DNA of 61,555 bases, taken from Patescibacteria group bacterium. GTDB lineage: Bacteria > Patescibacteriota > Saccharimonadia > Saccharimonadales > EFPC-124. Every line of letters starts with the position of its first letter. Position 1 is the first letter of the stretch. A program made the translations under genes and the position numbers. This document shows positions 2,173-48,175 of this stretch, piece after piece. Where the stretch lies: positions 1-61,555 of the forward strand of contig DATMOD010000029.1 of NCBI GenBank assembly GCA_035568355.1. The letters run 5' to 3'. Below the pieces are notes generated by a model that worked only from the letters and a program-made list of their open reading frames with translations, ran no database searches and was not told where the DNA came from.

Positions 2173-2284
2173 ATTAAAAGTCCTCTGTCAAAGTCGTAAT
2201 GCTACCTACAATACCTGCTTACGTTGATTCGGTCAATGGAGCAAACCCTACTACAATTAGAGCGTAAACATTATATAACAATAA

Positions 2285-2543: not shown

Positions 2544-2568
2544 CCAGAGCGTCGCTCTGGATTTTTAT
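2544..2568 (+). terminator. Rho-independent terminator on the plus strand with no plus-strand CDS upstream
   Basis: The stem is CCAGAGC-gtc-GCTCTGG, followed by ATTTTTAT. Confidence 0.55.
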
Positions 2569-2692
2569 ACATTATCATCTTTTATAAGATTTGTAAATGA
2601 TTTGACTCTAGTCACTCTGTATTTGACAGACCTATCAAAAATTTAATTAATACACCTATTGTTTTTAGCCTAGCCATGCTAAACTCACGGAC

Positions 2693-3361
2693 ATGCCAAA
2701 ACGTAGACGGATAAATCAGATACCAGTAGAAGATCGACCTCGCGAAAAATTGCAACGCAAAGGTGCCAGCGCCTTGTCTGACTTCGAACTACTTGAGGTG
2801 ATGATAGGCAGTGGCAGTAGCGGTGCGGACGTTGGTCAGATTGCCAAGCAAGTACAAAAACTATTGCAAAAAGGCACTGCGAGCTTAAGTTTAGAAGCCT
2901 TGACTGCGGTGCACGGCATTAGCGTTGCGATTGCCAGCAAAATACTCTCAGCTCTAGAACTTGCTAAACGCCATCTAGTGCAAGACAGCAAACCACTGCG
3001 GACAATCAATGACATTGTGGCCAGACTCGACGACATTCGTACTAAACAACAAGAATACGTTATAAGTTTATCGCTTGATGGAGGCCATCGTCTAATAGCT
3101 AGACGCACCATAACTATTGGCACATTAGATGCCGTGCTCGCCCACCCCCGCGAAGTATTTTCGGATGCGATCGTTGACCGTGCTGCCAGTGTTGTTGTAG
3201 CCCATAACCATCCGTCCGGCGACGTCCGACCTAGCCAAAAAGACATCACGCTCACTCAACAATTAGCTGCTGCCGGCCAATTGTTGGGCGTGCCGTTGCG
3301 TGATCACATAATAGTAACCAAAACTGAACATTTCAGTTATAGACAGAACCACATGTTATGA
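2693..3361 (+). CDS. radC: RadC-like JAB-domain protein (UPF0758)
   Basis: It has the HNHPSGDVRPSQKDITLT JAMM-like motif and an N-terminal helix-hairpin-helix-like region. Confidence 0.85.
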   Translation: MPKRRRINQIPVEDRPREKLQRKGASALSDFELLEVMIGSGSSGADVGQIAKQVQKLLQKGTASLSLEALTAVHGISVAIASKILSALELAKRHLVQDSKPLRTINDIVARLDDIRTKQQEYVISLSLDGGHRLIARRTITIGTLDAVLAHPREVFSDAIVDRAASVVVAHNHPSGDVRPSQKDITLTQQLAAAGQLLGVPLRDHIIVTKTEHFSYRQNHML

Positions 3362-11925: not shown

Positions 11926-13039
11926 GCTTAACTTCCGCCTCTATATTGGCATATTCTAGTGTTACATTAATCATATCACCCAATTTTAGGTCTTTGGCAT
12001 TAGCCCTTAGCAAATGGTCTTTGTTATCGCGCACCAGTGCATAACCTCTCTTTAGTGCCGCCTTAGGATCCAATTGCTTTAATAAGATTGAATATTGCTT
12101 AGCCTGCTGGCGATAACCAGCTAAAGAGCTCTCTAGTTTATTAACGCATTGTTGCATCTGACCATTCACATCCAATTTTGTGGTCTGCAATCTAGAAGCT
12201 AGCCTCCGGGCACAGACTTGTTGTTCGCGGACTATCTGTTGCAAAATAACATCGCGCGCCGGCACCAGTATCTCAGCAGCATTGCTTGGTGTGGCCGCCC
12301 TGACATCCGCTGCTAGATCGCATAGACTTATATCAACCTCGTGCCCTACCCCTACTACTGTAGGTATCCGACTAGCCGCTACTTCGCGCACTAATAGCTC
12401 TTCGTTAAAAACCGATAAGTCTTCGTTACTACCACCTCCCCGAATCAACACTAGCGCTTCTACTGGCTCTGCCTGCTGATTAAAATAATTCAGCGCCCGA
12501 ATGATTTGCTGGCTGGCCGCAGCACCCTGTACTTGCACATTAGCAACCGACACACTGGTGCCTGGCCATCGGTTGTTAAGGATCTTTATAAAGTCACTAT
12601 AGCCTGCTGATTCTACAGAAGCTATCAAGCCAATCCTCTCTGGGGCGAATGGCAGAGATCGCTTTCGCTCAGAAGCAAATAGGCCTTCGTGATCTAGCTT
12701 AGCCTTCAGTAGTTCAAACGAGCGTTTTAGGGCACCTTCACCCACTAAGGTTATCTCACGCACTGTTAAACTAAACTTGCCACCGACCGTCAAGCGTGGC
12801 TGAGCATATATTTGCACCTTCATACCATTTTCTAGCGGCATGCGTAGCTGATAGACCATCATAAAACAACTGAGCAGGGCCTCACTGTCTTTTAAATCAA
12901 AGAACACAAATTTACCCTTGTTGACTTTGAATGATGATATCTCACCTTCGACCATCACGCCCGGATAAGCATATTCTAATGTCTGATTAATTAGCGACAG
13001 GCATTCACTAACGCTAAAGACAGGCCTATCTGTCGTCAT
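11909..13039 (-). CDS. xseA: Exodeoxyribonuclease VII large subunit
   Basis: It has an N-terminal OB fold (VEGEISSFKVNKGKFVFFDLKD) and a catalytic region (LIRGGGSNEDL). Confidence 0.9.
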   Translation of the reverse strand: MTTDRPVFSVSECLSLINQTLEYAYPGVMVEGEISSFKVNKGKFVFFDLKDSEALLSCFMMVYQLRMPLENGMKVQIYAQPRLTVGGKFSLTVREITLVGEGALKRSFELLKAKLDHEGLFASERKRSLPFAPERIGLIASVESAGYSDFIKILNNRWPGTSVSVANVQVQGAAASQQIIRALNYFNQQAEPVEALVLIRGGGSNEDLSVFNEELLVREVAASRIPTVVGVGHEVDISLCDLAADVRAATPSNAAEILVPARDVILQQIVREQQVCARRLASRLQTTKLDVNGQMQQCVNKLESSLAGYRQQAKQYSILLKQLDPKAALKRGYALVRDNKDHLLRANAKDLKLGDMINVTLEYANIEAEVKHVQAV

Positions 13040-14060
13040 AATTCCTCAAAGCCTTATGATAAAACAAATAACCAGTAATGAGCGCTATGGTCAATGTGAC
13101 TACTCGGGATACCAATGTAGCACTAAGTGCCAAAGGCCCAGACACACCGGCAGCTATTAAAGTGGCCACCATCACCGGTTCGTAGACTCCTAAACCACCC
13201 GGGAAAATTGCCACCAGACCAGTAATAGTCGCGAGCGCGTAAGCAATAATTACTGCCCCAGGGTTAATCCACGCACCGTGAGCCACAAAAGCCACATAGA
13301 CCGTTGCTACCTCAAATACATTAGCAGCCAACGCCCACCCAAGAGCTGGCCACATTTTATGCACATCTTTACGTAATAACAAATAGTCTGTGTGTAGTTC
13401 TTCGAATGTTTTTTCTACTCGCTTAAGGTTAATACTCTCGGGGTGAGCCCGCCTAAAAACATGCAGTACCCAATTGACTGCTCGACTGATAGCATGTGCG
13501 AATTGCTTGATACGATTTATTGAGCCTATTACATAAACCAGTACTAAAGTGCCAAAAAGAATCGACAGGGTTAGCGTAGTCGCTAAAAATATAATTACTC
13601 CATTGGCCTTATTCTCAATTGCCAGCATGATGACAGCCACCAAAAGCAAGATTATAAAACTAACAAAAGCCAGCATGAATCGCATAAGGTGCGCGAGTGT
13701 CGATTTAGCAGTCGATATACCATACTGTTTTAAGCGCAGTGTCAGATAAGAAAAGCCAGACACTCCCCCACTGGGGAAAATATGGTTTACAAAATTGAGT
13801 TCGACTACTGCCTTAAATAATACTCGTTGCGACAGTTTACCGCCCGTAACGGTAAAATAGTGCCCCAACACACGCGACACAGCATAGAAAGCTAGTCCCT
13901 GCATTGGTAACATCAAAGCTAGAACCCATAGATTTAGGTGTCGCAACTTTTCTACAGCTACTAGAATGTCGCGCCTAGCCAAAAACAAAACAACAGCCAC
14001 AGCCAAAAAGGCCACTACATTCAACCAAAATTTAAACCGTGGTAACGTCTTCTTACTCAT
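13026..14060 (-). CDS. Flippase-like / lysyl-phosphatidylglycerol-synthase transmembrane-region family membrane protein
   Basis: It has roughly 8 transmembrane helices and a UPF0104-like architecture. Confidence 0.7.
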   Translation of the reverse strand: MSKKTLPRFKFWLNVVAFLAVAVVLFLARRDILVAVEKLRHLNLWVLALMLPMQGLAFYAVSRVLGHYFTVTGGKLSQRVLFKAVVELNFVNHIFPSGGVSGFSYLTLRLKQYGISTAKSTLAHLMRFMLAFVSFIILLLVAVIMLAIENKANGVIIFLATTLTLSILFGTLVLVYVIGSINRIKQFAHAISRAVNWVLHVFRRAHPESINLKRVEKTFEELHTDYLLLRKDVHKMWPALGWALAANVFEVATVYVAFVAHGAWINPGAVIIAYALATITGLVAIFPGGLGVYEPVMVATLIAAGVSGPLALSATLVSRVVTLTIALITGYLFYHKALRNYDDR

Positions 14061-14143
14061 TGGATATCATTATAGCAAACCCAGCTGACGCAAAATTCCC
14101 CCTGTTAGAAGACAGTCTTCTAGAAGAACTGTATAATAGCCGT

Positions 14144-15307
14144 ATGGTAATTTGTACACTTGGTCGCCAACCTGAACTTGGCATGGCAGAGTTGGAGTCG
14201 CTTTATGGCGCATCTGCTCTACATTCACTCAACAATCAAGTGGCGTCAGTTGATGTCGAGGCACGTGACATCAACCAAAATAACCTAGGCGGCACTATAA
14301 AAATCGCCACGCCGCTTATTACACTAAACACCACTAAATGGGACGCTATAATAGACGCTTGCCAGCAACAACTAATCAAGTTGGCACCAAATATACCTGA
14401 GGGCAAAATTACCATCGGCCTAAGTGCCTTGGGCGTCAGGGTCAACTCCAGAGATATGCAACGTGCCGGATTAAGTCTTAAAAAAAGTTTAAAAAACCTT
14501 GGGCACAGCGTAAGGCTAGTACCAAATGCTGCCCCAGAACTAAACAGTGCTCAAGTGCTTCATAATCAACTTACTGGACCACGCGGTGTAGAGTTACTGC
14601 TTATAAGTGGTGGCCAGCAAACACATATCGCCAGGACCACATCTGTACAAGACATAGATGATTACACTAGACGTGATTTCGGACGACCCAAACGCGATGC
14701 TCTTGTTGGCATGCTACCACCAAAATTAGCTCAAATTATGATCAATCTAGCCCAAGCAAAGCCGGATAATGTTTTACTCGACCCGTTTTGCGGTACAGGG
14801 GTAGTCTTGACCGAAGCTGCCCTGTTGGGGCTACGCCTACAAGGCAGCGATCTTGACTCCAGAATGATAGATTACACAATAGCCAATCTGGACTGGCTAA
14901 GCCAGACTTACGGCATAGTCCCCAGCATTATTGATTTATCGGTAGCCGATGCTCAGCAACACAACTGGCATAAGCCGATCGATACTGTGGTTTGCGAAAC
15001 CTACCTAGGCAAGCCGCTGGTCACATTGCCAGACGTTAAGCAGCTACAAAAAATCGTTAACGATTGCGACAATCTGGTCAGAAAATTTTTAATCAATTTA
15101 CAGGCTCAGCTAGACTCTGGTACTCGTTGCTGCATTGCCGTACCTGCTTGGCAGACACCAAAAGGGTTTATAACATTGCCAGTTATTGACGACCTCAAGA
15201 AAATTGGGTATAATCAGGTTAGTTTTTCAAATGGCACTGGCAATCTTAGGTATTACCGTAAAGATCAAATAGTCGCCCGCCAATTGTTAGTTTTAACCCG
15301 TCAGTAA
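14144..15307 (+). CDS. Putative RNA methyltransferase (UPF0020 / Trm11-RlmL-like)
   Basis: DPFCGTGVVLTEAALLG is a SAM-binding motif. I prefer the ATG at 14144 over the GTG at 14039, because the GTG overlaps the convergent gene. Confidence 0.7.
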   Translation: MVICTLGRQPELGMAELESLYGASALHSLNNQVASVDVEARDINQNNLGGTIKIATPLITLNTTKWDAIIDACQQQLIKLAPNIPEGKITIGLSALGVRVNSRDMQRAGLSLKKSLKNLGHSVRLVPNAAPELNSAQVLHNQLTGPRGVELLLISGGQQTHIARTTSVQDIDDYTRRDFGRPKRDALVGMLPPKLAQIMINLAQAKPDNVLLDPFCGTGVVLTEAALLGLRLQGSDLDSRMIDYTIANLDWLSQTYGIVPSIIDLSVADAQQHNWHKPIDTVVCETYLGKPLVTLPDVKQLQKIVNDCDNLVRKFLINLQAQLDSGTRCCIAVPAWQTPKGFITLPVIDDLKKIGYNQVSFSNGTGNLRYYRKDQIVARQLLVLTRQ

Positions 15308-24655: not shown

Positions 24656-27600
24656 TTATCTTTGCAGTATTTCTATAGCTGTCAGGTTCCATCGATCGTT
24701 AGTGGGCGCCGTGTCATTAATCGTCACTACCGTGCCAGAAGCCGGCGTAATGTTAGTTTGGCGTTGTGCCCAATAGGTATCACCAGATGAAGCCAAAAAC
24801 TCATCAACCTTGGTCTGGTTAGTACCAACAGTTCGAGCGGTTGCTGAATCCCAGTCGTTACCAACACCCCATACCCACGAGTTAGCAGCTGTGGTGGTAA
24901 GTGAAACGCTAGGTGCGCCCGTAGATGCATTAGCACTGGCTACCGCACCATCGACAGCCGTATTAGCGTTAAGGAAAGCTACCACATTGATTGAGCCGAT
25001 AAACGAGCCGCTATTTCTAGTAGCTACAGTGGCTATGCTAGTACCAGCTGTTGGAGCAACTGCTGTCCAGATCTCAGAAGTACCAGCTTGGGTGTTGGTA
25101 CGTTGTCGCAACTTCCAGGTCAGGCCGCCCCCACTAACGGATGCGAAGTTAATGGTGCCCGGGTTTGGGCCATCTGAGTTAATAAATGCTACCAGCAGTT
25201 CATTAGCTGCCGCCGTAGTCAAACTCGGGGCATTAATAGTATTGCTTGCAGTTGTTTGATGGAAGCTGACTGCTTTATCAACTGCCAGTGCTGCAGAAGC
25301 AGCTGGGGTTGTAACTGCCGCCGAATTAGACGCTGGGCTGACATTACCAGCCGCATCACGAGCTGTAACCGTATAGCTATAGCTTGTGCTGGCGACTACG
25401 GTGTTGTCTGTGTATGTAGTGCTGGTTCCGGCTGTTGTGCCAACAGTCACGCCGTTGCGGAGTACAGTGTATCCAGTCACACCAACATTGTCGGTTGAAG
25501 CTGCCCAGCTTAGAGAAACTGAACTTGAGCTGGTAGCGCTGGCTGTTAGGTTAGCTGGTGCTGTTGGCGGGGTGGTATCGGCAGTAACGACCACGCTAGT
25601 TTCGTTAGAGGATGAGCTAATATTGCCGGCAGTATCTTGAGCTTGAACCTTGTAATAATAGGTACCAGCTGCTAAACCACTGTCAGTAAAACTAGTAGTA
25701 GCACTGGTGCCAATCTGGTTAGACGCGCCAGGAGTAAATCCGGTAGTAGTAGAGCGATAAACAACATAGTTTGCTATTCCTGCACTACTAGTCGATGCAG
25801 TCCAGCTGAGAGTTGCCTTGCCGATACTTCCTGTCCCTGTTAAGTTAGCTGGTGCTGTTGGCGGGGTGGTAGATTCGTAAGCAGCTGGAAACCGAACCAT
25901 CGAAGCGACCGATGGCACGCCATTACTATTAACAATAAATAGCATGTAGTATCCGGGAGGAGCCGTATTGCTGTTTGGGGGCATCTGAATGTTTAAGCCA
26001 CCCGCAGTTTGGGTAAAGCTGAGTGGTACAGCTCGACCGTTTTGATCAAACGAATGAGTTGTTGACCCAGTACGAATCAGAGTCACCTTGCTGATACTCG
26101 CACCATCTGGCGTGCCAACAAAGGTATTTGACCCATAAGCTACCGTACTAGGTGCTGAACTGATGGTTGGTCGTGCCCCCTTAAAAAGATACGATGGGGA
26201 GTAAATCTGGTAACTTTTTTGGTCTGGTACACCGGCGTCACCACCGCTTCCAGATTCAAATATACGACCGTCGGGCATAAGAAGAGCGGTTGAATGATAC
26301 AAGCGAGCCACACTCATGCTGGCGAGAGTTGACCAACTACCGCTACTTGGGTTCCAAAGCTCAGCCTGTAGGACACCGTTGGCATTGCTCGAACCAGTCT
26401 TAGTTGTATCGCCACCCGTAGCCAGCACCGTGCCATCTGGCAAATTTACAAGATTCACAAAACTACGCGGGAAAGCCATGCTGCCAGTTGGTTGCCAAGT
26501 TGGGTTGGGTTTACTCATATCTAATGTGAAAGCTGTGTTGCTTGAAGCGCCAGTGTTGCCGCTATCAGCAGCCGAACCAGCCTTCATAAACAGATTAGGG
26601 GCATAATTGGCAATGCTGGCACCATCAATTATGCGAGCGTCAATTGTGCTCCACTGCTGGGTAGTAAGATCGAGCACTTTTGTTGAGGTGGCGACTTCGG
26701 ATGCACCAGCTTGTAGAACCCGCCCGTCTGGTAACTGATACATAAATGGATAGACTGGTATTGACTGAGTAGCGCTAGTAGCCATGTCAGTCCATGTATT
26801 GTTCTGGACATTATATATCTCTGGGATAGTAACCAGATCATTTATGGCCGTGTTGTAGCCAGAGGTTGCCATTACTCTACCATCACCTAGTGTAGTGCCC
26901 GTAGCGTACCAACGAGGATGGTGCATTGGCGCAAGACTTTGCCAGGTTTCGGTAGTTGGATTAAAGGCAGTTACAGCAGTAGTGCCAAGGCCGCCACTAG
27001 TTGAGGTTCCGCCGATAACCAATATGCGACCATCAGCAGTTACTGCTTGCCCAGCACAGAAAAGATCGGCTGCAGCATTCGGTACTTGATTGATACTATC
27101 ATTAGTCGGATTGTAGAGATATTGTTGCCCACCTTGCGAAAAGTCTCCCTGCATTGTTAGGATTTTGCCAGTAGGCGTTAAGGCAGCGTGAATCGAAACC
27201 TCTGGGTAAGTAACCACTGGACCCCACTGTCCAATCAACGACGCATTTGAACCGGCATTAGAAACAGTCACGCTTACACCACTGGTAGTTGCAGTACCGC
27301 CAGCTGCATTTCGGGCACGCGCTGATAAAACGTGACTACCATTTACGGTTTGGGTGGTATCCCAGTTTATATTGTAAGGCGCTGTCGTAATCTCGGCTCC
27401 CAGGTTTGCACCGTCGAGCAAGAATTGTACGCCAACAACTCCCACGCTATCGCTAGCAGTGGCGCTAACGACCACACTATTCGAAACTGTGGCTCCACTA
27501 CTAGGCGCTGTCATCTGAACAGTTGGTGGAGTAACGTTAGTGGTTGCTGGTAGAATTTCTATAAGCGACAGGTTCCATCGGTCGTTGATAGGTGCAGTGT

Positions 27601-28285
27601 CGTTAATAGTCACGGCTGTACCAGCAGCTGACGTGACATTGGTTTGGCGTTGTACCCAATACGTATCACCAACAGGAGCCAAGAACTCATCAACCTTGGT
27701 CTGGTTAGCACCAACAGTTCGAGCAATCGCTGCATCCCAGTCAGTACCAACACCCCAGACCCACGAGTTAGCTCTGGTCGTGGTAAGTGAGGCACTTGGT
27801 GCACCGGTAGTCGAGTTGCCAGTGCCAACAGCACCGTCAGTAGAAATATCAGCACCAATAAAGGCTACTACATTCATAGAAGCTGTGTAAGCCCCTGAAT
27901 TGCTAGCCGTTACGCTCATATTACTCATCACATTTGGTGCGACAGCAGTCCAGATTTCAGCTGTACCGGCTTGGGTATTAGTGCGCTGTCTCAGTCGCCA
28001 GGTTAGACCACCGCCACTAACACCAGAGAACGTTTCGTTAGTAGATCCGTCAGAACTTAAGAAAGCCACCAGTAGCTCGTTAGTCGTAGCAGTGTTAAAA
28101 GCTGGCGAAGTTATAGTACTAGAAGCTGTCGACAAGTGTTGACTAACTTGCTGGTCTACTACCAGGCTAGCCGCCGAAGCTGGTCGGGCAAAGAATATGC
28201 TCGATATCCCGCTCGAGCCAAATACTAAAAATATAGACAACCCCACCAAAGAAAAGCGGCGCAGCCATTGATTAAGCCTTTGCAT
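24656..28285 (-). CDS. Large secreted multidomain protein. Order: signal peptide, domain X, Ig-like domain, galactose-oxidase-like kelch propeller plus DUF1929-like domain, 2x FN3, domain X'.
   Basis: There is a strong CAGGAGGT Shine-Dalgarno. The motifs LFCAGQAVTADGRILVIGG, HPRWYATGTTLGDGRV, RLYHSTALLMPDGRIF and GSTTHSFDQNGR align with the Cys-Tyr/Tyr-His/His copper ligand set of galactose oxidase. FN3 repeats follow the PPTAPANLT segments. Confidence 0.85.
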   Translation of the reverse strand: MQRLNQWLRRFSLVGLSIFLVFGSSGISSIFFARPASAASLVVDQQVSQHLSTASSTITSPAFNTATTNELLVAFLSSDGSTNETFSGVSGGGLTWRLRQRTNTQAGTAEIWTAVAPNVMSNMSVTASNSGAYTASMNVVAFIGADISTDGAVGTGNSTTGAPSASLTTTRANSWVWGVGTDWDAAIARTVGANQTKVDEFLAPVGDTYWVQRQTNVTSAAGTAVTINDTAPINDRWNLSLIEILPATTNVTPPTVQMTAPSSGATVSNSVVVSATASDSVGVVGVQFLLDGANLGAEITTAPYNINWDTTQTVNGSHVLSARARNAAGGTATTSGVSVTVSNAGSNASLIGQWGPVVTYPEVSIHAALTPTGKILTMQGDFSQGGQQYLYNPTNDSINQVPNAAADLFCAGQAVTADGRILVIGGTSTSGGLGTTAVTAFNPTTETWQSLAPMHHPRWYATGTTLGDGRVMATSGYNTAINDLVTIPEIYNVQNNTWTDMATSATQSIPVYPFMYQLPDGRVLQAGASEVATSTKVLDLTTQQWSTIDARIIDGASIANYAPNLFMKAGSAADSGNTGASSNTAFTLDMSKPNPTWQPTGSMAFPRSFVNLVNLPDGTVLATGGDTTKTGSSNANGVLQAELWNPSSGSWSTLASMSVARLYHSTALLMPDGRIFESGSGGDAGVPDQKSYQIYSPSYLFKGARPTISSAPSTVAYGSNTFVGTPDGASISKVTLIRTGSTTHSFDQNGRAVPLSFTQTAGGLNIQMPPNSNTAPPGYYMLFIVNSNGVPSVASMVRFPAAYESTTPPTAPANLTGTGSIGKATLSWTASTSSAGIANYVVYRSTTTGFTPGASNQIGTSATTSFTDSGLAAGTYYYKVQAQDTAGNISSSSNETSVVVTADTTPPTAPANLTASATSSSSVSLSWAASTDNVGVTGYTVLRNGVTVGTTAGTSTTYTDNTVVASTSYSYTVTARDAAGNVSPASNSAAVTTPAASAALAVDKAVSFHQTTASNTINAPSLTTAAANELLVAFINSDGPNPGTINFASVSGGGLTWKLRQRTNTQAGTSEIWTAVAPTAGTSIATVATRNSGSFIGSINVVAFLNANTAVDGAVASANASTGAPSVSLTTTAANSWVWGVGNDWDSATARTVGTNQTKVDEFLASSGDTYWAQRQTNITPASGTVVTINDTAPTNDRWNLTAIEILQR
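24659..25288 (-). repeat. C-terminal copy of the intragenic direct repeat of about 0.63 kb (domain X')
   Basis: It aligns along its whole length with 27545-28165 at both the DNA and protein level. Shared blocks include GGGLTW+LRQRTNTQAGT.EIWTAVAP, NSWVWGVG.DWD and NDRWNL. Confidence 0.9.
27545..28165 (-). repeat. N-terminal copy of the intragenic direct repeat (domain X)
   Basis: See 24659-25288. Confidence 0.9.
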
Positions 28286-29573: not shown

Positions 29574-30890
29574 TTATAATTTTCGCACTGACGCGATAAA
29601 CTGATCACCTCTATCATTATAATTCTTGAACATATCAAAACTCGCACAAGCTGGTGACAGCAGAACGACATCGCCAGGCCTAGCAATTTTATGAGCATAC
29701 CCAACGATCTCGTTCATATTGCTCTGCTCGTCGAATAATCTTACGTCTTCGAACCCGACTCTTTTTAGCGCTGTCTGCAATTTAAAACGCATGTTGCCGA
29801 TCAGAATCGCCTGCCTGATATCCTGCTTGGCAACTTCTGCGGCCAACTCATCAAAATCCGCACCTTTGTCGGAACCACCCAGAATTATTATCTTGGGTGG
29901 TATAAAAGCCCGTAATGCCACGATAGCCGAATCTGGTGTGGTGGCAAAACTATCATCATAGTACTTGACCCCATCCACAGTTCGCACCAATTGCAGTCTA
30001 TGATTCAAACCCTTAAAATCTTTTATAGCCTCTCTAAAACCTCTGATTGCCTCGCGAAAAGCAGCATCATCACCCACAAGTTGCCAAGCTGCACTTATGG
30101 CAGCGCAGATGTTTTCTAGGTTATGAGCCCCAGGGATATTAACGTCGCTGAGCTTACAGACCTCGTAGCCCTCAATCACAATACGATCACCGTCTATGTA
30201 AGCAGCCTCTTGAGTACCAAAACGGAACTTAAACGTAGCTGGTGATTTCTCAGCAATACGACGAGCATATACATTGGTTGGATGATAGATGATAAAGTCT
30301 CCTGGCTTTTGCCAACGAGCAATATTGCTCTTAGCAGCTAAATACTCATCAAAATCGGTATGAACATCTAGGTGATCAGGAGCAATCATACCAACCACTG
30401 CAATATGTGGGCTTTGGTGTAAATCCCATAACTGAAAACTAGAGAGTTCTAGCACTACAATGTCATCGGGCTTAATGTCATCTAGCATATCAAGCACCGG
30501 CACGCCAATATTACCGCCGATATGCACACGCTTACCAGCAGCTTGCAGCATTTTATATATCAGAGTCGTAATAGTGCCCTTGCCCTTGCTGCCAGTCACG
30601 CCAATTATATTTTTGGATGGGCAGACCTCAAAGAATTTTTTAACAGTTGAAGTTATCTCGCCGTTGGCTTTAATACGATCTGGCCTAATGCTTGGTGTTC
30701 GCACTACAATATCAAAATCGGTCAGTTCGGCAAAAATATCTTTGCCAATTAGCTGTTTGGCTCCAGACGGCACATCACTAATCGGATGTTCATCAGCAAT
30801 AGTCATGTCATAGCCACCCTGAGCTGCAAAATATTTATACGCCGAGTGACCTTCAATGCCAAAACCAGCAATGGCTACCTTTTTGTTCAT
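29574..30890 (-). CDS. murD: UDP-N-acetylmuramoylalanine-D-glutamate ligase
   Basis: The sequence contains GVTGSKGKGT. I moved the start to MNKKVAIAGFG at 30890, because the ORF-track extension is encoded by a repeat element. Confidence 0.9.
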   Translation of the reverse strand: MNKKVAIAGFGIEGHSAYKYFAAQGGYDMTIADEHPISDVPSGAKQLIGKDIFAELTDFDIVVRTPSIRPDRIKANGEITSTVKKFFEVCPSKNIIGVTGSKGKGTITTLIYKMLQAAGKRVHIGGNIGVPVLDMLDDIKPDDIVVLELSSFQLWDLHQSPHIAVVGMIAPDHLDVHTDFDEYLAAKSNIARWQKPGDFIIYHPTNVYARRIAEKSPATFKFRFGTQEAAYIDGDRIVIEGYEVCKLSDVNIPGAHNLENICAAISAAWQLVGDDAAFREAIRGFREAIKDFKGLNHRLQLVRTVDGVKYYDDSFATTPDSAIVALRAFIPPKIIILGGSDKGADFDELAAEVAKQDIRQAILIGNMRFKLQTALKRVGFEDVRLFDEQSNMNEIVGYAHKIARPGDVVLLSPACASFDMFKNYNDRGDQFIASVRKL

Positions 30891-30925
30891 AACAATAGTA
30901 TAGCAGTTCACTAACGGAGCCAGCT

Positions 30926-31077
30926 CTGACCAACCCACACTCACGTTTTCGCACATATCATCCCCAAGCCTTGGCTGGGAATCCAGGACAAAATGGAATA
31001 CATTCTAACTGGATCCCCGATCAGGTCGGGGATGACGGCAATGTGAGCTTAGAGATAAAAAGTGAGCGTGGGCCCAG
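30926..31077 (+). mobile_element. Composite palindromic element, family 2 core with family 1-like ends (copy 3)
   Basis: The ends are CTGACCAACCCACACTCACGTTTT and AAAAAGTGAGCGTGGGCCCAG. The core at 30958-31066 differs at 1 of 109 nt from the reverse complement of 35820-35928. Confidence 0.85.
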
Positions 31078-31091
31078 CTTCTGCTGAAGTC

Positions 31092-31595
31092 TTATTTGAT
31101 CGTATAAGCTCCCGAGGTCTCAAAAACTCCATTGGTATATAACTTGATCTTATAAGTACCTATTGGATGAGTTTGGCCAGGCTTGAGGCTAAAGTTAAAA
31201 CCAATACGTTGCGCTCCATCTTTTATAATGTTTACGGCGCCGTTATCAACCATAAAATCATCCCGATAACGAATATACTCTATGCGACTGCCTTTTTTAG
31301 CGTTATTTAGCCCTACGGTAATATAAATTGTGCTGTCTGTTTGCTTAAAATCAACACCGGGGGTTTTTATATTGCCAGCAGAATCCAGCACAGTGCCGAA
31401 TCTCAAAGCTTGGACTACCCCCGGGCGCTTAAGTTTTGCAACTACAGCCGGGGTGACAGGTGCGGCTGGCTTGTTACTGTTCTGATAAACATAGTAGCCA
31501 GCACCACCGGCAAGCACGATAACTAGTAAGACAATCAATATAACGTCCAAAGACCCTGCCATTGATTCAGACTGTGTCTTTAATCGCTTATTCAC
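31092..31595 (-). CDS. Hypothetical membrane-anchored protein
   Basis: It has one N-terminal transmembrane helix and overlaps the upstream ORF. Confidence 0.6.
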   Translation of the reverse strand: MNKRLKTQSESMAGSLDVILIVLLVIVLAGGAGYYVYQNSNKPAAPVTPAVVAKLKRPGVVQALRFGTVLDSAGNIKTPGVDFKQTDSTIYITVGLNNAKKGSRIEYIRYRDDFMVDNGAVNIIKDGAQRIGFNFSLKPGQTHPIGTYKIKLYTNGVFETSGAYTIK

Positions 31596-31924
31596 TGATT
31601 AGCTCCCCCGTTGTTTTGGCTAGCAGCTGGTACCGAATTGTCCATCCCACCCGAGCCAGACGTTCCATCGTCCATTTGGCTTTCTTGCGGACCAACGGTT
31701 TGATCAATCTGTACTTGGCCATTGTCAACTTGGCTTTGAACATTCTCGCTGTCTTTTACTTCTTGTTCATAAGCTGCAATGTCAGAATGAGCCTGAGCCT
31801 CAGCCTGACCGTCAGCTAGATCTCTAGCATAATCACTCTGTATTGGGGCGGCAAATGCCACACCAGTCGATACCGTTGCAACAAGCATCGCTCCGGTTGT
31901 CATTTTTAATATTTTGTTTCTCAT
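31592..31924 (-). CDS. Hypothetical small secreted acidic protein
   Basis: It has a signal-peptide-like N-terminus, MTTGAMLVATVSTGVAFAAP. Confidence 0.55.
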   Translation of the reverse strand: MRNKILKMTTGAMLVATVSTGVAFAAPIQSDYARDLADGQAEAQAHSDIAAYEQEVKDSENVQSQVDNGQVQIDQTVGPQESQMDDGTSGSGGMDNSVPAASQNNGGANQ

Positions 31925-31976
31925 AGGTCCCCCCTAATATGTCTGCTAATAATATAGCATAAGTATCAAAATCAAT

Positions 31977-33263
31977 TCAAATGAATAATTTAGAAAGTTG
32001 CTCGTGGAATCCATCAAGTTCAGCCTTAGTGCATTGCCCCAATCCACCAAAAGCCCAACGCTTGCCAGACATTAGATTATTAAGCGATTGCACGATTATG
32101 TCTTTATTGACGGCTTCGATTGCCAGCGGTCGCTTGTCGTAATCGTTAATATAACCATCAAAAAAATAACGCCCGCTATACCAGTTAGCAATCGAGCCAA
32201 CGGTCTGACAGCCCATTTGATGTTTGCCCAGCGCAAACTGTTTGGCGGCTTCTATATCTTTTTGTTTGATATCGCCCTTCATGACCTTAGAGACCTCTTG
32301 GACTATAATATCGAATAATTTTGGAGCATTCTTTAGGCTAACTTGACCTTCAAAGTCCCACTCGCTCGTACTATCACTCACTTCAAAATGTGATCCCATT
32401 CCATAGATCAATCCCTGTTCTCTGGCCTGTCCCAGAATGTGTGAATGCAATGTACCAGTCAACATATGGCTAAGTACTCGCATTGCATCACGTTCGTTAT
32501 CATGAAACCGCCAGTTAGCCTCAATCGCTAGACCAAATATCATGTTTTCGACATCTTTGCGGACAACTCGAATTGGTTCAGGTGCCCCCACCAGCTCTTC
32601 GTGTCTCATAGAAAATCGCTCGCCACGTGGTAATTGCCATTTTTCGAGCTGCTGGATTACAGTTTCGCGTCGCCCGTCTTTTAGGCTACCAGCAATTACA
32701 AACCGCATGTTATCACTAGTATGTGTGCGGTGGTAGTGCTCCTTGATGTGCTCTAACTGAACATTTGGCATATTTTTAAGACGCTGTTCATCATTCAAGA
32801 ATCTTTCACCGCTGGCCTGGCCTAATCGCTGCCACAGGACCATCCAATTATTGTTGAGCAGCCCGGTAAGTTCTTCTTTGACGTTGCCAGACTCTGCCTT
32901 AAACTCGCTTTCTAAAAAGAGTGGTTTAGTTATAGCCAATCGCAACAAGCCAAAAATGCGATCCCATTCAAAATCAGCACAATCGGCTACGTATTTGAGA
33001 CTAACCTTGCCGGTCGATGCGTTAGAATAAGCACCATTTTTTTCTAGCTCGGCATTAAAGATTCGAGCATTATCGTATTGCTCGTTAGCACCCAGAACCA
33101 TGTGCTCCATGATATGGGCTGTTTCGTAGATATCATCACCTTGGGTATATTCGTCCCCTGCCCTAAATTCAAAGTCGTAACTCATAACCGTGGCGTTTGG
33201 GATATGAATTAGCAACCCACGGCTACCATTTTGTAATACAACTTCTTCTACGGAATGTTTCAT
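31977..33263 (-). CDS. M16 (pitrilysin/insulinase) family zinc peptidase
   Basis: HIMEH is an inverted HxxEH zinc motif. I moved the start to MKHSVEE at 33263. Confidence 0.85.
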   Translation of the reverse strand: MKHSVEEVVLQNGSRGLLIHIPNATVMSYDFEFRAGDEYTQGDDIYETAHIMEHMVLGANEQYDNARIFNAELEKNGAYSNASTGKVSLKYVADCADFEWDRIFGLLRLAITKPLFLESEFKAESGNVKEELTGLLNNNWMVLWQRLGQASGERFLNDEQRLKNMPNVQLEHIKEHYHRTHTSDNMRFVIAGSLKDGRRETVIQQLEKWQLPRGERFSMRHEELVGAPEPIRVVRKDVENMIFGLAIEANWRFHDNERDAMRVLSHMLTGTLHSHILGQAREQGLIYGMGSHFEVSDSTSEWDFEGQVSLKNAPKLFDIIVQEVSKVMKGDIKQKDIEAAKQFALGKHQMGCQTVGSIANWYSGRYFFDGYINDYDKRPLAIEAVNKDIIVQSLNNLMSGKRWAFGGLGQCTKAELDGFHEQLSKLFI

Positions 33264-33297
33264 GCTAGGCCTTAGTTTAACACATTTTAATCTGTTT

Positions 33298-35673
33298 TTA
33301 CCTGTCACTTTCTATATAGGCCCAAGCAATTCTAATGTGAGCAATGGCTGAAGTTAAAGTAGTTACTGAATCGTTATAGCGCATTAATATGTTGGCGGCT
33401 GGTATATTAGTAGCAACTAAGCAAACATCGTTACCATCGATTTTAAACTCAGCTTGAGAGCTAGTTAGAATAATCTCAAATTTATGACCGCTAGTACTAA
33501 TTGCCGTACCAGAATCAACGATTGTCTGTGTAACACCAGCTTTTGTAATACATTTATAGGTTGTATCGCCAGCACTGGTGTCATATCTAAAGGACGCATA
33601 GTTTCCAGCCGGGTTGGCAGCTCCGGCCATTGTTGTTGAAGTTTGGTCAGTCAAACCCAACCACAAACGTTCGCTAGTAGTGGCTGTCAGCGCTACATAA
33701 GTCTGAAAGTCTGGATTAGTTGAGCTATTGTAATTAGTGTTACCAAAAATATTTGTGAAGTTACCACTAACAGCAGTGGTGGCATTATCCAACTGGGCTG
33801 GCTCGGTTGCAGTTGTAGCAATCGCCGTTTTAGTACCCGTACCATTAGTGTCGGCTTGGTCTCCCAGATTACTGAACGTGGTATTGCTAGAGCCATTAGC
33901 TATCGCACCCGTGTATTTAATATATGCCCAAGGCCTATTACTTGGTTTCGGCGTACCAACACAGTCTGCCCAGCCCCTAGAGCCTTCATAACAACGTGAT
34001 GTTTGCGACTTAGTATTGTAATACCTAGCACCAGCCACACCTGATGGATCCCCAGCTGTGCTCTTGTTGCTCAATACTAGTAAGGTAGGCGTGCTGCTAG
34101 GGCTGACATCCCCGCCGCCGATTTTAATAGCCATATTCGTGGTGTCGACCACAAATTCACTATTACCAGAGGTATCCTGAATCCTGAAAGCCGTTGTTGT
34201 GTTAGTACTGTTCTGGAATCCTGCCCCACTAGGCCCAACTGTCATCAGATTGGCTCCACCATTGCTTCGGACTATAAAGATATCGCCGCTCTGCTGGCTA
34301 TTGCCTTTTACAACAAGCTGAGCAGTATCGCTAGTACCGTTTATATTTATAGCTGCTATAAAAGTGTTAGGGGCGCTTAGCTGAGCAAGATTAGCACCGT
34401 CTGATAAAGCAGCTGAGGATATCTGAGAACCATTAATCTGGTATTGGCTACTAGTACCGGTTATATTTACACTACCAGTGGTTGCTGTCAGATTAGCGGC
34501 GGTGACATTACCTACGGTTGATATGTTGCCAATAGTAGTCACGTTACCTGCTGAGCTTATACTGAATTGACTGACGGCGTTGACTTGCAAATCAAGTAAG
34601 TTGCCGGCTGAGCCAGTCACAGCATTGACTAACAACATGGGGTTAGCCCCATTTAAAGATGATAATGTTAGCTGACCAAATGTTGGTTTGGCGCTAATAT
34701 TAATATCTTGCACAGTGTTAATTACACCTCCAGCTGAACTAAAATTACCGGAGTTAAACTGAGCGATACCTTTATTAGTGACCGAGGCATCATCAATGGT
34801 AACAGTTGCACCTACAGCACTAGAATTTGCCAAGTTAAGTGCGCCGACTTGCGAATTTAGGCTTATCACACCCGAATTAAATAGCTGCCCTTCTGTTGTC
34901 GTGGCCAAGCCATTACCAATAATAATAGTACCGCTAAAACCGCCTATGTCTAAGACTCCACTATTGCTGAGTTGAGAACCTGATACAGCTAATCCATCTC
35001 CAAGAGTAATTGCACCAGTCTGACCCGCGATACTCAGTATGCCTTTATTAGCGATAGTGAGATCAGTAATATCAATACCTGGACCAGCCTTAAAACTGAC
35101 ATCACCCACAAATCCCTGCATCGACAATACCCCGGAATTCTCAAGCTGACTACCAACTAATTCCAGCCCATCCCCCAACACTAAACTGCCATTCAATATT
35201 AACGAGCCCATAACACCTTTGCTGGTGCCGCCCTGCAAGGTGGTGTCGGTAGTTGCAGGAATCGCTCCCAGATCTATAAACTGAACACCATCGTAGTAAG
35301 TCAGCGCATGGCTGTCTTTATCAAAATAAAGCTGCCCAGTAATTGGCTTACTGGGCTCTGCTGTTGGTGTTAGTACTATCGAACTACCAACCTTGACCTG
35401 CCCGACAACATTAAGATCCTTAGCGATCACAGGGGTTAGTTGATTAGCCTTCAAGTCCTGCAGGCCTAATTCTACAGCCCGTATGCGATCATTGATCTGT
35501 TTATTCGGTGTGTCTAACCGGTTAACCGTCTCGGCCAGGTGATTATGCGATATATGAATATATGCAGCTTCAACCAACACCAGAGACAGCAAAAAATACA
35601 GACCAGCGATAGCTAGCTTCTCTGTTTTCGGCGACCAGTCCCAAAAATTATGTGCTTTTCGCCTAATAAACAT
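33298..35673 (-). CDS. Membrane-anchored fibre-like surface protein with repetitive beta-helix-like repeats and a C-terminal jelly-roll-like domain
   Basis: It has an N-terminal transmembrane helix and degenerate repeats (GDGL.V.GSQL.NSGVL). I prefer the start MFIRRKAHNF at 35673. Confidence 0.75.
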   Translation of the reverse strand: MFIRRKAHNFWDWSPKTEKLAIAGLYFLLSLVLVEAAYIHISHNHLAETVNRLDTPNKQINDRIRAVELGLQDLKANQLTPVIAKDLNVVGQVKVGSSIVLTPTAEPSKPITGQLYFDKDSHALTYYDGVQFIDLGAIPATTDTTLQGGTSKGVMGSLILNGSLVLGDGLELVGSQLENSGVLSMQGFVGDVSFKAGPGIDITDLTIANKGILSIAGQTGAITLGDGLAVSGSQLSNSGVLDIGGFSGTIIIGNGLATTTEGQLFNSGVISLNSQVGALNLANSSAVGATVTIDDASVTNKGIAQFNSGNFSSAGGVINTVQDINISAKPTFGQLTLSSLNGANPMLLVNAVTGSAGNLLDLQVNAVSQFSISSAGNVTTIGNISTVGNVTAANLTATTGSVNITGTSSQYQINGSQISSAALSDGANLAQLSAPNTFIAAININGTSDTAQLVVKGNSQQSGDIFIVRSNGGANLMTVGPSGAGFQNSTNTTTAFRIQDTSGNSEFVVDTTNMAIKIGGGDVSPSSTPTLLVLSNKSTAGDPSGVAGARYYNTKSQTSRCYEGSRGWADCVGTPKPSNRPWAYIKYTGAIANGSSNTTFSNLGDQADTNGTGTKTAIATTATEPAQLDNATTAVSGNFTNIFGNTNYNSSTNPDFQTYVALTATTSERLWLGLTDQTSTTMAGAANPAGNYASFRYDTSAGDTTYKCITKAGVTQTIVDSGTAISTSGHKFEIILTSSQAEFKIDGNDVCLVATNIPAANILMRYNDSVTTLTSAIAHIRIAWAYIESDR

Positions 35674-35700
35674 AAACACCAGGCGCTTTTTCAAGCGCCT
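35674..35700 (-). terminator. GAAA-capped 8-bp hairpin immediately 5' of the fibre-gene start. It is either a terminator of secA read-through or a translational hairpin.
   Basis: On the minus strand the hairpin is AGGCGCTT-GAAA-AAGCGCCT, followed by GGTGTTTATGTTTATT. Confidence 0.35.
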
Positions 35701-35808
35701 CCTCACCACCTCTTTTAGCACGTACCATAAGAGACTCGTGTTTATCACTAAAAAGCTAGTGATAAAGTCTCTGCTTATAAGTGTACTTTGCTTATGCTTT
35801 TAGGACAA

Positions 35809-35956
35809 CCTAACCAAGCCTCACTTTTTATCTCTAAGCTCACATTGCCGTCATCCCCGACCTGATCGGGGATCCAGTTAGAATGGATTCCATTTTGTCC
35901 TGGATTCCCAGCCAAGGCTTGGGGATGACGAGGATGGAAAAGTGAGGGTGGGTCAG
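35809..35956 (-). mobile_element. Composite palindromic element (copy 4), inverted relative to copy 3
   Basis: See 30926-31077. An extra solo end, CTGACACTCACATTTTT, lies at 35964-35980. Confidence 0.85.
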
Positions 35957-36001
35957 CGAGGCAACTGACACTCACATTTTTAGAGGTAAAATCGGATACT
36001 A

Positions 36002-38590
36002 CTAATGGTGCTTTTTCTTATTCTGACGTTCTTTTTTGCGTTTTTTACGAGCATCGTCCTTCTTCTTTTTGGCAACATTATCATTAGTGGTTGTGTCGAA
36101 ATTAACGTTGTGTTCGACTTCAGCAATCTCATTTACGCCCTGCTCGACTGCGCGTTCGGCAGCCCTAGTCAGTTCGGTATCAAAGTTCTCTTCTTTTTCT
36201 ACAGCTGCATCACGCTTGGTTATATGGAACATAGCCCGCACAACTTCCGATCGTAGGGTTAGTTGCAACTGATCAAAAACTCGCTGTGATTCTTGGCGAT
36301 ATTCTACCAACGGGTCACGCTGGCCAACGCTGCGCCAATGAATGCCATCTCGTAAGTGACTCATGTTCTCTAGATGTTGCATCCACAGTGTATCAAGCAC
36401 CTGCAGGTAGATCTCACGCTCTAGTTTACGCATCGTCTCTGGACCGAACTCTTGCTCGCGCACCCCATAACGCTTCTGGGCTAGAGACATTGCGACCTTA
36501 GATCGTTCCTTCTCTTTAGCACTACGGATTTTTGCAAAATCGTTTTTATCTAGAGGGATAACTGATTCAAATGCAGTCACTGTTTCGCGATCTTCTTTAG
36601 GCCAAAGGTTAGTCATAGCGGCTGCTTGTTCTGCCACTAGATCTTTGACACGATCACTAATGTCCCCACTCTCTAAAATCTTGCGTCTAATAACATAGAC
36701 AGCTTTGCGGTGTCGGTTCATAACGTTGTCATACTGCACAACATTCTTGCGAGTATCAAAGTGATAGCCTTCAACCTTCTTCTGGGCGCTTTCTAGAGTT
36801 TTGCTGACTGCCCGGTTTTGGATTGGGGTGTCATCGTCTACGCCTAATCGGTCCATAAGTGTTGCGATTCGCTCACCCTGGAATATACGCATTAGATCAT
36901 CTTCTGTAGACACATAGAACTGCGTTAAACCTGGATCACCCTGGCGACCACAACGACCTCGTAACTGGTTATCTATGCGCCTAGCTTCGTGCCTCTCTGA
37001 GCCAACAACCACTAAGCCACCTAGCTCGCGTACACCTTCGCCTAACACAATGTCTGTACCACGGCCAGCAATGTTGGTTGCTAAAGTAACTGCGCCCTTT
37101 TGACCAGCCGCAGCGACAATCGCCGCTTCTCGTTCATTGTTCTTTGCATTTAAGATTTCGTGTACAACACCAGCCTTGGTGAGTGCCCGACTAAGTTCTT
37201 CGTTCTTATCGATTGAAGCTGAACCAATCAAGACTGGCCTTCCCTCTTGGTTGTATTCTTTGACAGTCTTGACTATAGCCCGGAATTTGCCAGCCTCAGT
37301 CTTGAATATCATGTCTGGACGATCGTCACGCGCAATCGGTTTGTTAGACGGTATCTGTATAACATCCAAACCATAAATCTGCTGGAATTCTTCAGCCTCA
37401 GTAAAAGCCGTACCAGTCATACCAGACAGTTTGTTATACAAACGAAAATAGTTCTGGAACGAAATCGTGGCAAGCGTCATGCTCTCTTGCAGCACCGGCA
37501 CTTGCTCTTTGGCTTCTATAGCCTGATGCAGCCCCTCGTTGTAACGTCGGCCATGCATCAAACGACCAGTGAACTCGTCGACAATTATCACTTCTTTATC
37601 AGACGTCACTACATAGCTTTTATCGCGTTTATACAGAGTTTCTGCACGCAAAGCTTGGTCGATGTGGTACACCAGTTTGACATTATCAGGATCATAAAGG
37701 TTCTTAATGCCCAGAAGTTTTTGGACTTTCTCTACGCCCATATCCGTTAGACTTACCGCTTTACGCTTTTCGTCTAACACGTAATCTTCAGGGACAAGTT
37801 TCTTGGTGATTGTGGCGAAGGTATTGTAGCTGGTCCCACTGTCGCTAGCTGGAGCCGAAATGATTAGTGGCGTACGAGCTTCGTCTATCAAGATTGAGTC
37901 GACCTCATCCACAATTGCAAAGTTCAGTTCTCGCTGACGCAGCAAATCGACTTCGTTGACCATATTGTCGCGCAGATAGTCAAAACCAAACTCGTTGTTA
38001 GTGCCGTAAGTAATGTCAGCCGCGTAGGCTTCCTTACGAGTGCAAGGGCGGAGTTTGCGCATTCGTGGATCAGTGTGAGCATCATTATCGTATTTGGCAT
38101 CAAACAGATAAGATTGGTCGGCAATAATAACACCAGTCTTCATACCCAAGAAATCATAAACCGAACCCATCCAACCAGCATCACGTTGTGCCAAGTAATC
38201 GTTGACCGTTACTACGTGCACACCCTTACCCGCTAGAGCATTCAAAAAACTCGGCAGTGTCGCCATCAGAGTTTTACCTTCACCAGTTTTCATTTCGGCT
38301 ACGTTGCCTTCGTGCAAGGCCATACCAGCAATAAGCTGTACGTCAAAATGGCGCTCTTTAAGCACTCTATCCGAAGCCTCACGCATCACTGCAAAGGCCT
38401 CTGGCAAAATATCTTCGAGTGTTTTCTTCTGTAGTTGCTCTCTCAATAAGCCTGGCTGTTTTTTAAGCTCCGGCACCGACATGGCTTTGTAATGCTCGGC
38501 TAGATTATTAACAGCAATAACACGCTTTTTAAGGCGCTTGATAATTTTAGCTTGCGGATCACCGAAAATCTTAGTTAGAACTTTTTTCAT
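36002..38590 (-). CDS. secA: Preprotein translocase ATPase SecA
   Basis: The sequence contains MKTGEGKTL and DEVDSILIDEARTPLIIS. There is a Lys-rich C-terminal tail. Confidence 0.97.
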   Translation of the reverse strand: MKKVLTKIFGDPQAKIIKRLKKRVIAVNNLAEHYKAMSVPELKKQPGLLREQLQKKTLEDILPEAFAVMREASDRVLKERHFDVQLIAGMALHEGNVAEMKTGEGKTLMATLPSFLNALAGKGVHVVTVNDYLAQRDAGWMGSVYDFLGMKTGVIIADQSYLFDAKYDNDAHTDPRMRKLRPCTRKEAYAADITYGTNNEFGFDYLRDNMVNEVDLLRQRELNFAIVDEVDSILIDEARTPLIISAPASDSGTSYNTFATITKKLVPEDYVLDEKRKAVSLTDMGVEKVQKLLGIKNLYDPDNVKLVYHIDQALRAETLYKRDKSYVVTSDKEVIIVDEFTGRLMHGRRYNEGLHQAIEAKEQVPVLQESMTLATISFQNYFRLYNKLSGMTGTAFTEAEEFQQIYGLDVIQIPSNKPIARDDRPDMIFKTEAGKFRAIVKTVKEYNQEGRPVLIGSASIDKNEELSRALTKAGVVHEILNAKNNEREAAIVAAAGQKGAVTLATNIAGRGTDIVLGEGVRELGGLVVVGSERHEARRIDNQLRGRCGRQGDPGLTQFYVSTEDDLMRIFQGERIATLMDRLGVDDDTPIQNRAVSKTLESAQKKVEGYHFDTRKNVVQYDNVMNRHRKAVYVIRRKILESGDISDRVKDLVAEQAAAMTNLWPKEDRETVTAFESVIPLDKNDFAKIRSAKEKERSKVAMSLAQKRYGVREQEFGPETMRKLEREIYLQVLDTLWMQHLENMSHLRDGIHWRSVGQRDPLVEYRQESQRVFDQLQLTLRSEVVRAMFHITKRDAAVEKEENFDTELTRAAERAVEQGVNEIAEVEHNVNFDTTTNDNVAKKKKDDARKKRKKERQNKKKHH

Positions 38591-47973: not shown

Positions 47974-48175
47974 GGAACTCCTTCGTACACCCCGTATTCT
48001 ACCATAAAGCGCCACTAACTCTGGTGGACTCAACAATTCACAAAATACCGCTCTATTAAAGGTAAGGGTCTCCCTCCTTTAGAATGAGGCATTAAATTCT
48101 CGAAGACTGTCTTCTAGCAGAAAGGATTTTGCGTCAGTCGCTAGAAGAGTTGTTGTTTAGAATCTTTATCTGGCT

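Follow-up and report, generated by a model that had tools for sequence, protein, structure and literature searches.

Repetitive extragenic palindromes (REPs) tagged by a terminal CGTC (or TGTC/CCTC) have a stem of 8-9 bp opening with A-T, a loop of 4-5 nt and a CCA tail. Head-to-head dimers, with the tags outside, predominate among them, and the class includes dRS3/NTS of Neisseria and RPE-4/-6 of Rickettsia (Di Nocera, De Gregorio and Rocco 2013, PMC3733652). Such repeats are called Ssn-related motifs (SRMs) in PMC11893778, where they are described by the pattern HGTCWYN(0-2)YYVSBRHN(0-5)WNVSBRGN(0-2)RNCYNB and linked to a cognate nuclease with a single GIY-YIG domain (cd10448), about 94 aa long, whose gene usually has SRMs on both sides. 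A fencing role has been proposed for the Neisseria NTS repeats clustered around surface-protein genes. Here we analyze a pair of elements of this type, referred to as copies 3 and 4, which lie in inverted orientation around four genes between secA and murD in a contig of a Patescibacteria group bacterium (GCA_035568355.1, DATMOD010000029.1; the whole 61,555-nt stretch is referred to as the window). The original prediction, made from the sequence alone, saw the geometry of either a composite transposon or an invertible segment with a surface-protein cassette. Our analysis makes it very probable that the repeats are ordinary copies of a small non-coding hairpin element located in the gaps of an ancestral gene row, and neither a transposon nor a dedicated switch. 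The elements are as follows.

30929-31077, plus strand: copy 3, the same element as copy 4 in the opposite orientation, with both arms diverged from those of copy 4.
35810-35956, minus strand: copy 4, a palindromic element of ~147 nt, in which the arm CTGACCCACCCTCACTTTT is followed by a REP hairpin with the CGTC tag, then by a spacer of ~30 nt and a second REP in inverted orientation; the right arm (35810-35827) is diverged.
35965-35981, minus strand: a solo arm-like motif AAAAATGTGAGTGTCAG, 8 nt upstream of the left arm of copy 4, right after the secA stop codon.

A repeat search over the whole window yielded one long inverted pair, 30933-31066 and 35820-35953, with arms of 134 nt each that are 93% complementary and separated by 4753 nt (blastn E-value 5e-52). 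In the pairwise alignment the core of copy 3 (30958-31066) and the reverse complement of the core of copy 4 (35820-35928) differ by a single mismatch in 109 nt, at position 31000 (A vs C), as had been predicted. The claim that other members of the family are far more diverged was also borne out: they are 72-88% identical by blastn, and in the 83-nt core copies 3 and 4 form the most similar pair of the family (96.4%), followed by a pair with 91.7% identity, the mean over 378 pairs being 72%. The near-identity does not reach the ends of the elements, which with their terminal arms are about 147 nt long (~30929-31077 and ~35810-35956). The left outer 25 nt (30933-30957 vs 35929-35953) contain 7 mismatches, and the right arms, about 6 in 11 nt; together this makes about 13 mismatches in 36 positions of the arms compared with 1 in 109 of the interior. 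For the interior and the left arm (1/109 vs 7/25) the Fisher test gives p = 2.6e-5. The borders of the identical tract match neither the terminal arms nor the CGTC tags, as the left tag is outside the tract, and on the right the tract overshoots the tag by 28 nt.

If a whole element had moved recently, its ends would be expected to be identical, whereas a patch bounded internally is the usual signature of gene conversion. We favor conversion over copying because the near-identical patch ends inside two otherwise diverged homologs. Copies 3 and 4 are very probably separate insertions of one hairpin-forming element, consisting of arms like those of a miniature inverted-repeat transposable element (MITE) around a head-to-head REP dimer. 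One is located just after the secA stop codon and the other upstream of murD, and the enclosed genes are resident chromosome and not cargo. The near-identity would have arisen when the inverted copies, 4.75 kb from each other, underwent one gene-conversion event dependent on RecA. RecA is encoded in the genome, and such a single event is, on balance, the probable source of the 109-nt near-identity. The high identity had been ascribed to recent transposition or ongoing gene conversion; this was a reasonable suggestion, of which the mosaic pattern favors the second half. If, instead, one copy had recently been derived from the other, or both from one master copy, via the mobilization system of the family itself, the identity would reflect youth. 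Several observations agree with this: the site of copy 4 is empty in both close relatives described below, implying insertion after that split, the pair is the most similar one in the family, and a third member of the same subfamily, 85% identical, is found at C56:14148. Nevertheless, the identity stops inside the element on both sides, and neither a unit bounded by terminal inverted repeats nor one bounded by tags fits the identical tract. We regard recent copying as the main alternative to conversion, though an unlikely one.

Homogenization of neighboring copies as a general rule was considered and rejected, as eight other pairs of family members located within 10 kb of each other are 64-81% identical, compared with the background of 72%. 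One could also suspect that the assembler homogenized two diverged interiors, given that the source is a short-read metagenome (contig names k141_...). However, the final k of 141 exceeds the length of the repeat (134 nt), and both the internal single-nucleotide difference and the differences between the arms were retained. Furthermore, the inner 30 nt are the same in the Logan unitig from SRR7098091, and over 20.5 kb there is 100% identity to an independent ENA contig of 72 kb. An artefact of this kind is highly unlikely.

The REP unit in both copies is CGTC-ATCCCCGA-CCTGA-TCGGGGAT-CCA, and the left hairpin of each is a variant with an extended stem (CCCCAAGCCTTGGCTGGG). In copy 4 each hairpin is bordered by CGTC or its complement GACG; in copy 3 this holds for the right hairpin, the left tag being mutated to ATATC. 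Each copy contains an exact SRM match (31009-31037 on the minus strand in copy 3, 35849-35877 on the plus strand in copy 4). The elements form long hairpins on either strand (z-scores from -4.7 to -6.4); the folding energy is -57 and -70 kcal/mol for copy 3 and from -62 to -72 kcal/mol for copy 4 (z-scores from -4.7 to -6.0). In copies 3 and 4 and a dozen other copies, arms of the form CTGACCCACCCTCACTTTT / AAAAGTGAGGGTGGGTCAG are wrapped around the REP dimer, the ends being of the type CTGACCCAC... Both arms are found in copies 3 and 4, which gives them terminal inverted repeats shared with other copies, as is characteristic of MITEs. The arm motif has 53 matches in the genome at three mismatches or fewer, mainly at the ends of a separate MITE family of ~110 nt. 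These matches are mainly paired 90-105 nt apart, with a variable center that is complementary within each copy; examples in the window are 10308/10412 and 57940/58134.

The genome searched is a metagenome-assembled genome (MAG) of 975 kb that consists of 56 contigs, with a completeness of 97% and a contamination of 0.2%. By blastn and three rounds of nhmmer the family comprises 57 loci. Most of them (43) are intergenic though about 90% of the genome is coding, 13 are inside open reading frames (ORFs), and the neighboring genes are of all sorts. The family is quasi-palindromic, since both strands match at every locus. The alignment of the best 28 copies has a core of ~90 nt that starts with CGTC-AT(C/T)CCC(A/G)A-loop-T(C/T)GGGAAT-CCAG and continues with a spacer of ~30 nt, which has its own small hairpin, and an inverted unit ending in GACG; the tags are outside, and most of these 28 copies have the form CGTC...GACG. 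Exact matches to the SRM pattern number 15 in the genome, compared with a mean of 3.2 in ten Markov-1 random genomes, and most of the AT-richer units of the family fail the strict pattern. All features of CGTC-tagged REPs (the tag, the stem, loop and CCA tail, and dispersed, mainly extragenic head-to-head dimers) are observed. A template/variable repeat pair of a diversity-generating retroelement was rejected: the repeats are inverted, intergenic and belong to the 57-locus family.

The family is essentially confined to this genome, as judged by the blastn search of copy 4 against 40 relatives from GTDB; the nhmmer search of 80 secA loci with the family model produced no match. Rfam at gathering thresholds has no hits in the window, nor were tRNAs found there. 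One more short palindromic repeat, with the core TAGAAGACAGTCTTCTA, occurs in the window at 14085-14125 and 48097-48137 and elsewhere in the genome at C55:~30140 and C56:~50300; it sometimes directly abuts members of the REP-dimer family.

All genes of the row are on the minus strand, in the order secA, copy 4, fiber gene, M16 peptidase, 110-aa protein, 167-aa protein, copy 3, murD, release factor. The content of the segment is as originally described, with the M16 assignment supported by Pfam and the estimate of ~790 aa for the fiber protein agreeing with the 791-aa start. The genes and the promoter-like motif are listed below.

36002-38590, minus strand: secA (Pfam SecA_DEAD, E-value 7e-116).
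35780-35808, minus strand: promoter-like motif TTGTCC-17 nt-TACACT, upstream of the fiber gene and inside the segment.
33298-35673, minus strand: fiber-like protein, 791 aa, lineage-specific, membrane-anchored, rich in Thr, Gly, Ser and Asn, mostly beta.
31977-33308, minus strand: M16-family peptidase (Pfam Peptidase_M16 and M16_C).
31592-31924, minus strand: 110-aa acidic protein with a signal-peptide-like N-terminus; orthologs in the two closest relatives are 57-59% identical.
31092-31595, minus strand: 167-aa protein with an N-terminal membrane anchor; orthologs in the two closest relatives are 58-63% identical.
29574-30890, minus strand: murD, 438 aa (TIGR01087, 336 bits, from model position 1).

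The best matches of SecA, 77% identical, come from Saccharimonadales MAGs and place the window in Saccharibacteria. For the analysis of synteny, 80 Saccharibacteria loci were collected via SecA. In 79 of 79 loci secA is followed by a co-oriented M16 gene, and in 69 of 70 the M16 gene is followed by murD, whereas the fiber protein and the two small proteins were found in none of the 80. The closest relatives are two contigs referred to below as L083 (JGI 3300060314) and L084 (Logan SRR33086928). Both have the row secA-p785-M16-p123/125-p166-murD with all genes co-oriented, in the same order as in the window. Identity to the window proteins is 88% for SecA, 84% for M16 and 84-85% for the release factor; the fiber protein (72%), the small proteins (57-63%) and MurD (57%) diverge faster. 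As L083 and L084 share the row in the same orientation, it is ancestral to the clade and is retained in the window in the ancestral orientation.

The repeats behave differently from the genes. In the gap between secA and the fiber gene the window has an insertion of ~190 nt, consisting of the solo arm and copy 4, right after the secA stop codon, where L083 and L084 have ~15 nt; the copy 4 site is thus empty in both. The rest of this gap is kept in all three: it includes the TTGTCC-17-TACACT motif, the leader, GGAGG and a hairpin abutting the start codon. Upstream of murD, L083 has a shorter, diverged member of the family with one hairpin and an outer arm ending in AAAAAGTGAATGCGGG, and L084 has a different GC-rich palindrome. 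Family-like palindromes of L083 also occupy the p785-M16 and M16-p123 gaps, which in the window and in L084 are short and empty. By these comparisons, the elements are gained and lost independently in the gaps of a stable gene row, in the manner of REPs and MITEs, and are not the boundaries of a cassette. The original prediction had named the same arrangement with diverged repeats in all relatives as evidence against it. The arrangement is indeed the same; one of the two sites, however, is empty in both relatives, and the other carries either a diverged family member or a different palindrome. In L083 the nested palindromes (12359-12595, 13883-14089 and 14959-15086) are located in three gaps of the same row; they have arms of the CCACCCTTACT type around a single CGTCATTCCC...GGGAATGACG hairpin, within a further palindrome.

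The composite transposon, in which the two elements would mobilize the four genes as a unit, is supported by geometry only, that is, by similar inverted repeats around a few genes. The elements are ~147 nt long, encode nothing and have no transposase, M16 is a universal neighbor of secA and murD, the row is present in relatives lacking copy 4, and no target duplication is seen at the level of the composite. The non-coding nature of the elements, the M16 synteny (79/79) and the same row in relatives without the repeat on the secA side refute this part of the original prediction and make a composite transposon extremely unlikely.

The second possibility is that the 4.75-kb segment is inverted by RecA-mediated crossover between the 109-nt cores, and this often enough to matter biologically. 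Inverted stretches of 109 nt with 99% identity are sufficient for homologous recombination, RecA is available, and the conversion-like tract suggests that the copies have already interacted; rare RecA-mediated flips between such repeats are physically possible. At the same time, no recombinase of the invertase type was found in the genome: there are no serine recombinases, no IS110/Piv recombinases and no Y1/RAYT transposases. Piv-type enzymes were included in this search because, according to a citation in PMC11893778, dRS3 is targeted by a specific recombinase of a phage. The segment encodes only the fiber protein, the M16 peptidase and the two small proteins, with no recombinase gene in it or next to it. 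The single tyrosine recombinase of the genome is located outside the window, on the 2.7-kb contig C26, and looks Xer-like by sequence (HTLRHSFAT ... GHSNIATTQIYTHV). Further, the assembled orientation is the ancestral one (79/79 distant and 2/2 close relatives), the k141 assembly is unbranched through both junctions, the sign of the GC skew does not change between the segment and its flanks, and after a flip four genes would run counter to the strand orientation that is otherwise uniform in the window. The 72-kb ENA contig has the same orientation, so that both available assemblies show only one.

It had also been suggested that inversion would uncouple the cassette from transcription coming from secA. 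This argument is weakened by the position of the promoter-like motif and leader inside the segment, due to which a flip would change little; the fiber gene keeps this region within the segment, since the gap past the insertion is conserved in all three lineages. The motif shows little or no variation among the window, L083 and L084 and matches the sigma-70 consensus at only 8 of 12 positions, and its conservation suggests that it serves as the fiber promoter. Taken together, the data make an invertible segment improbable.

The elements could also act in the way proposed for the Neisseria NTS repeats, with an Ssn-type nuclease cutting the SRM elements as single-stranded DNA and thus limiting replacement of the fast-evolving surface locus by natural transformation. 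By analogy, this would agree with the exact SRM in each copy, with a hairpin unit that is almost the Neisseria NTS consensus, and with the faster divergence of the bracketed fiber and small proteins (57-73% compared with 84-88% for their neighbors). However, no small GIY-YIG gene of the Ssn type (cd10448) was found in the genome: PF01541 matches only the UvrC-like ORF of 542 aa, and a motif scan of ORFs shorter than 300 aa revealed no credible GIY-YIG. Given the 97% completeness, the nuclease is likely absent. Moreover, the genome has only 15 strict SRM sites, and the family is located beside genes of all sorts and inside 13 ORFs. Such fencing is very unlikely here; if it did operate in a bacterium of the candidate phyla radiation (CPR) without a recognizable Ssn nuclease, it would imply an unknown partner enzyme. 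More generally, it is distinctly improbable that the pair is an active recombination substrate with a biological role, be it RecA flips of the fiber segment or SRM fencing against natural transformation. An effect of the elements as RNA hairpins or insulators may be considered as well. The UvrC-like ORF (C14:6432-7985), the only GIY-YIG ORF of the genome, itself contains a family copy at 7562-7663, which recalls the published enrichment of intragenic REPs in excision-repair genes.

A number of points weigh against our interpretation of the pair as converted copies of an ordinary element. The relatives sufficiently close to have the full four-gene row are only two in number. It is uncertain whether copy 3 is orthologous to the L083 element upstream of murD, as the hairpin variants differ. 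The Logan contig from SRR7098091 (k = 31) ends exactly 30 nt (k-1) into copy 3, as it would at any repeat, and is uninformative on orientation; with this k, Logan contigs cannot be phased across a repeat in which stretches of 42 and 66 nt are identical. As for the mode of spread, no direct repeat that could be a target-site duplication flanks copy 3 or copy 4, and no mobilizing enzyme was identified for the family; in a MAG of 56 contigs a small partner gene could be in the missing 3%. The choice between conversion and recent copying rests on one pair in a single genome and cannot be proved. Regarding the transposases, none from the four families covered by the searches is present, and the genome has no homolog of the IS1595 transposase of L083, other DDE families not having been searched. 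In L083 this IS1595-type transposase and a gene with a Replic_Relax domain are located at 1207-3026, ~4 kb upstream of serS-hpf-secA.

The solo arm and the left arm of copy 4, as read from the sequence (35957-35981), form a right-end/left-end junction that yields a short hairpin followed by TTTT after the secA stop codon. The solo arm could be a remnant of a second element, or the junction could be a de facto terminator. A 66-aa ORF (within 35775-35975) lies wholly across copy 4 and the solo arm; it has no Pfam match and is almost certainly spurious. Copy 3 is located 43 nt upstream of murD, and the conserved extended -10-like motif TGCTATACT seen in the alignment of upstream regions (30898-30906) is outside it. 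The murD ORF of 460 aa, which is also found in the public annotation of the ENA contig, has its start at 30956 within copy 3 and is an over-extension; the start at 30890 is backed by the model and by the relatives. Hence the elements are a hazard for annotation: murD is called with a start within copy 3, and a spurious ORF is predicted across copy 4.

The true start of the fiber gene is most likely the ATG at 35673 (791 aa), as judged from the alignment with relatives; the ORF track gave 816 aa. The protein has an N-terminal hydrophobic helix followed by Gly/Thr/Ser/Asn-rich repeats of the type GDGL..SG.QL.NSGVL. Among 5.8 billion proteins it has only 12 homologs, the two nearest, 72% identical, being those of L083 and L084; a metagenome scan with the fiber alignment gave 12 distant partial homologs, none of them syntenic and none with the repeat. 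Nothing informative was found for the fiber and small proteins in the PDB profile search, PHROGs (for the fiber, only a weak match to a family of unknown function) and NCBIfam, and the fiber protein has no Pfam match either. The AlphaFold2 model of the fiber protein, built from 10 sequences, has a pLDDT of 40.7 and is unusable; thus only the composition and the predicted beta content support the label "fiber-like". The 5' leader of the gene (35673-35760), kept in the three lineages, contains GAGTCTCTTATnGTACGTnCTAAAAGAGGTGGTGAGGAGG. A GC-rich hairpin AGGCGCTTGAAAAAGCGCCT (35681-35700) is located 7 nt upstream of the fiber ATG (35671-35673), and could be a translational or attenuator element. 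Elsewhere in the window, a 300-nt direct repeat with 77% identity (24666-24965 and 27552-27851) is present at both ends of a 1209-aa galactose-oxidase-like gene with Kelch, GO-like E-set, Big and fn3 domains.

In an ultra-small episymbiont, a mobile or invertible surface cassette would have been a notable finding; what is observed indicates ordinary repeat biology instead. Yet well-defined NTS-like REP dimers in a genome of ~1 Mb without a RAYT or an Ssn-type nuclease narrow the search for whatever spreads or uses them to about a thousand genes, and the patchy homogenization of two copies indicates that homologous recombination is active in a CPR genome.

Invertible segments (Hin/Gin/Cin, Fim, Piv of Moraxella, Bacteroides invertons) resemble this locus in having inverted repeats around a few kilobases with a surface-protein gene. 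In those systems the repeats are short and specific to the locus, and a gene for a dedicated recombinase is located close by. In the present case, in contrast, the repeats are generic members of a family, serine, IS110/Piv and Y1 recombinases are absent, and the sole Xer-like enzyme is on another contig. Conversion between copies of insertion sequences (ISs), REP/BIME elements or rRNA operons likewise leaves a patch of near-identity inside diverged homologs in a RecA-positive genome; the present case differs in being a single event inferred from one genome, other neighboring pairs not being homogenized. With the Correia/NEMIS elements of Neisseria and the ERIC, RUP and BOX MITEs the family shares a length of 100-150 nt, the lack of coding capacity, terminal inverted repeats, a hairpin involving the whole element, dispersal in intergenic DNA by promoters and gene ends, and presence that varies among relatives. 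It differs from them in that no target-site duplication or parent IS with the same ends was identified, and in that the interior is a REP dimer and not a unique sequence.

The closest likeness is to the CGTC-tagged REPs. The family has their CGTC tag, a stem of 8 bp opening with A-T, a loop of 5 nt and a CCA(G) tail; the hairpin unit, CGTCAT(T/C)CCC-N-GGGAATCCAG, closely resembles the consensus of the Neisseria NTS repeats, given as CGTCATTCCCGCGMAVGCGGGAATCYRG in PMC11893778. Also in common are head-to-head dimers with a spacer of 20-100 nt that has its own small hairpin, and multiple, mainly intergenic copies with some in-frame intragenic ones, here in a genome lacking RAYT; for dimers nested in longer palindromes there is a precedent in H. 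neapolitanus. Unlike the described CGTC-tagged REPs, the family resides in a host from Saccharibacteria (CPR) with a genome of ~1 Mb, and no GIY-YIG partner of the Ssn type was found. A subset of its copies is wrapped in the arms of a co-resident MITE family, and the left hairpin is an extended variant. Our literature searches for repeats of the REP or MITE type in Saccharibacteria yielded no account of such a family there. The CGTC-tagged REP dimer inside a MITE-like shell belongs to a type of element that is already known.

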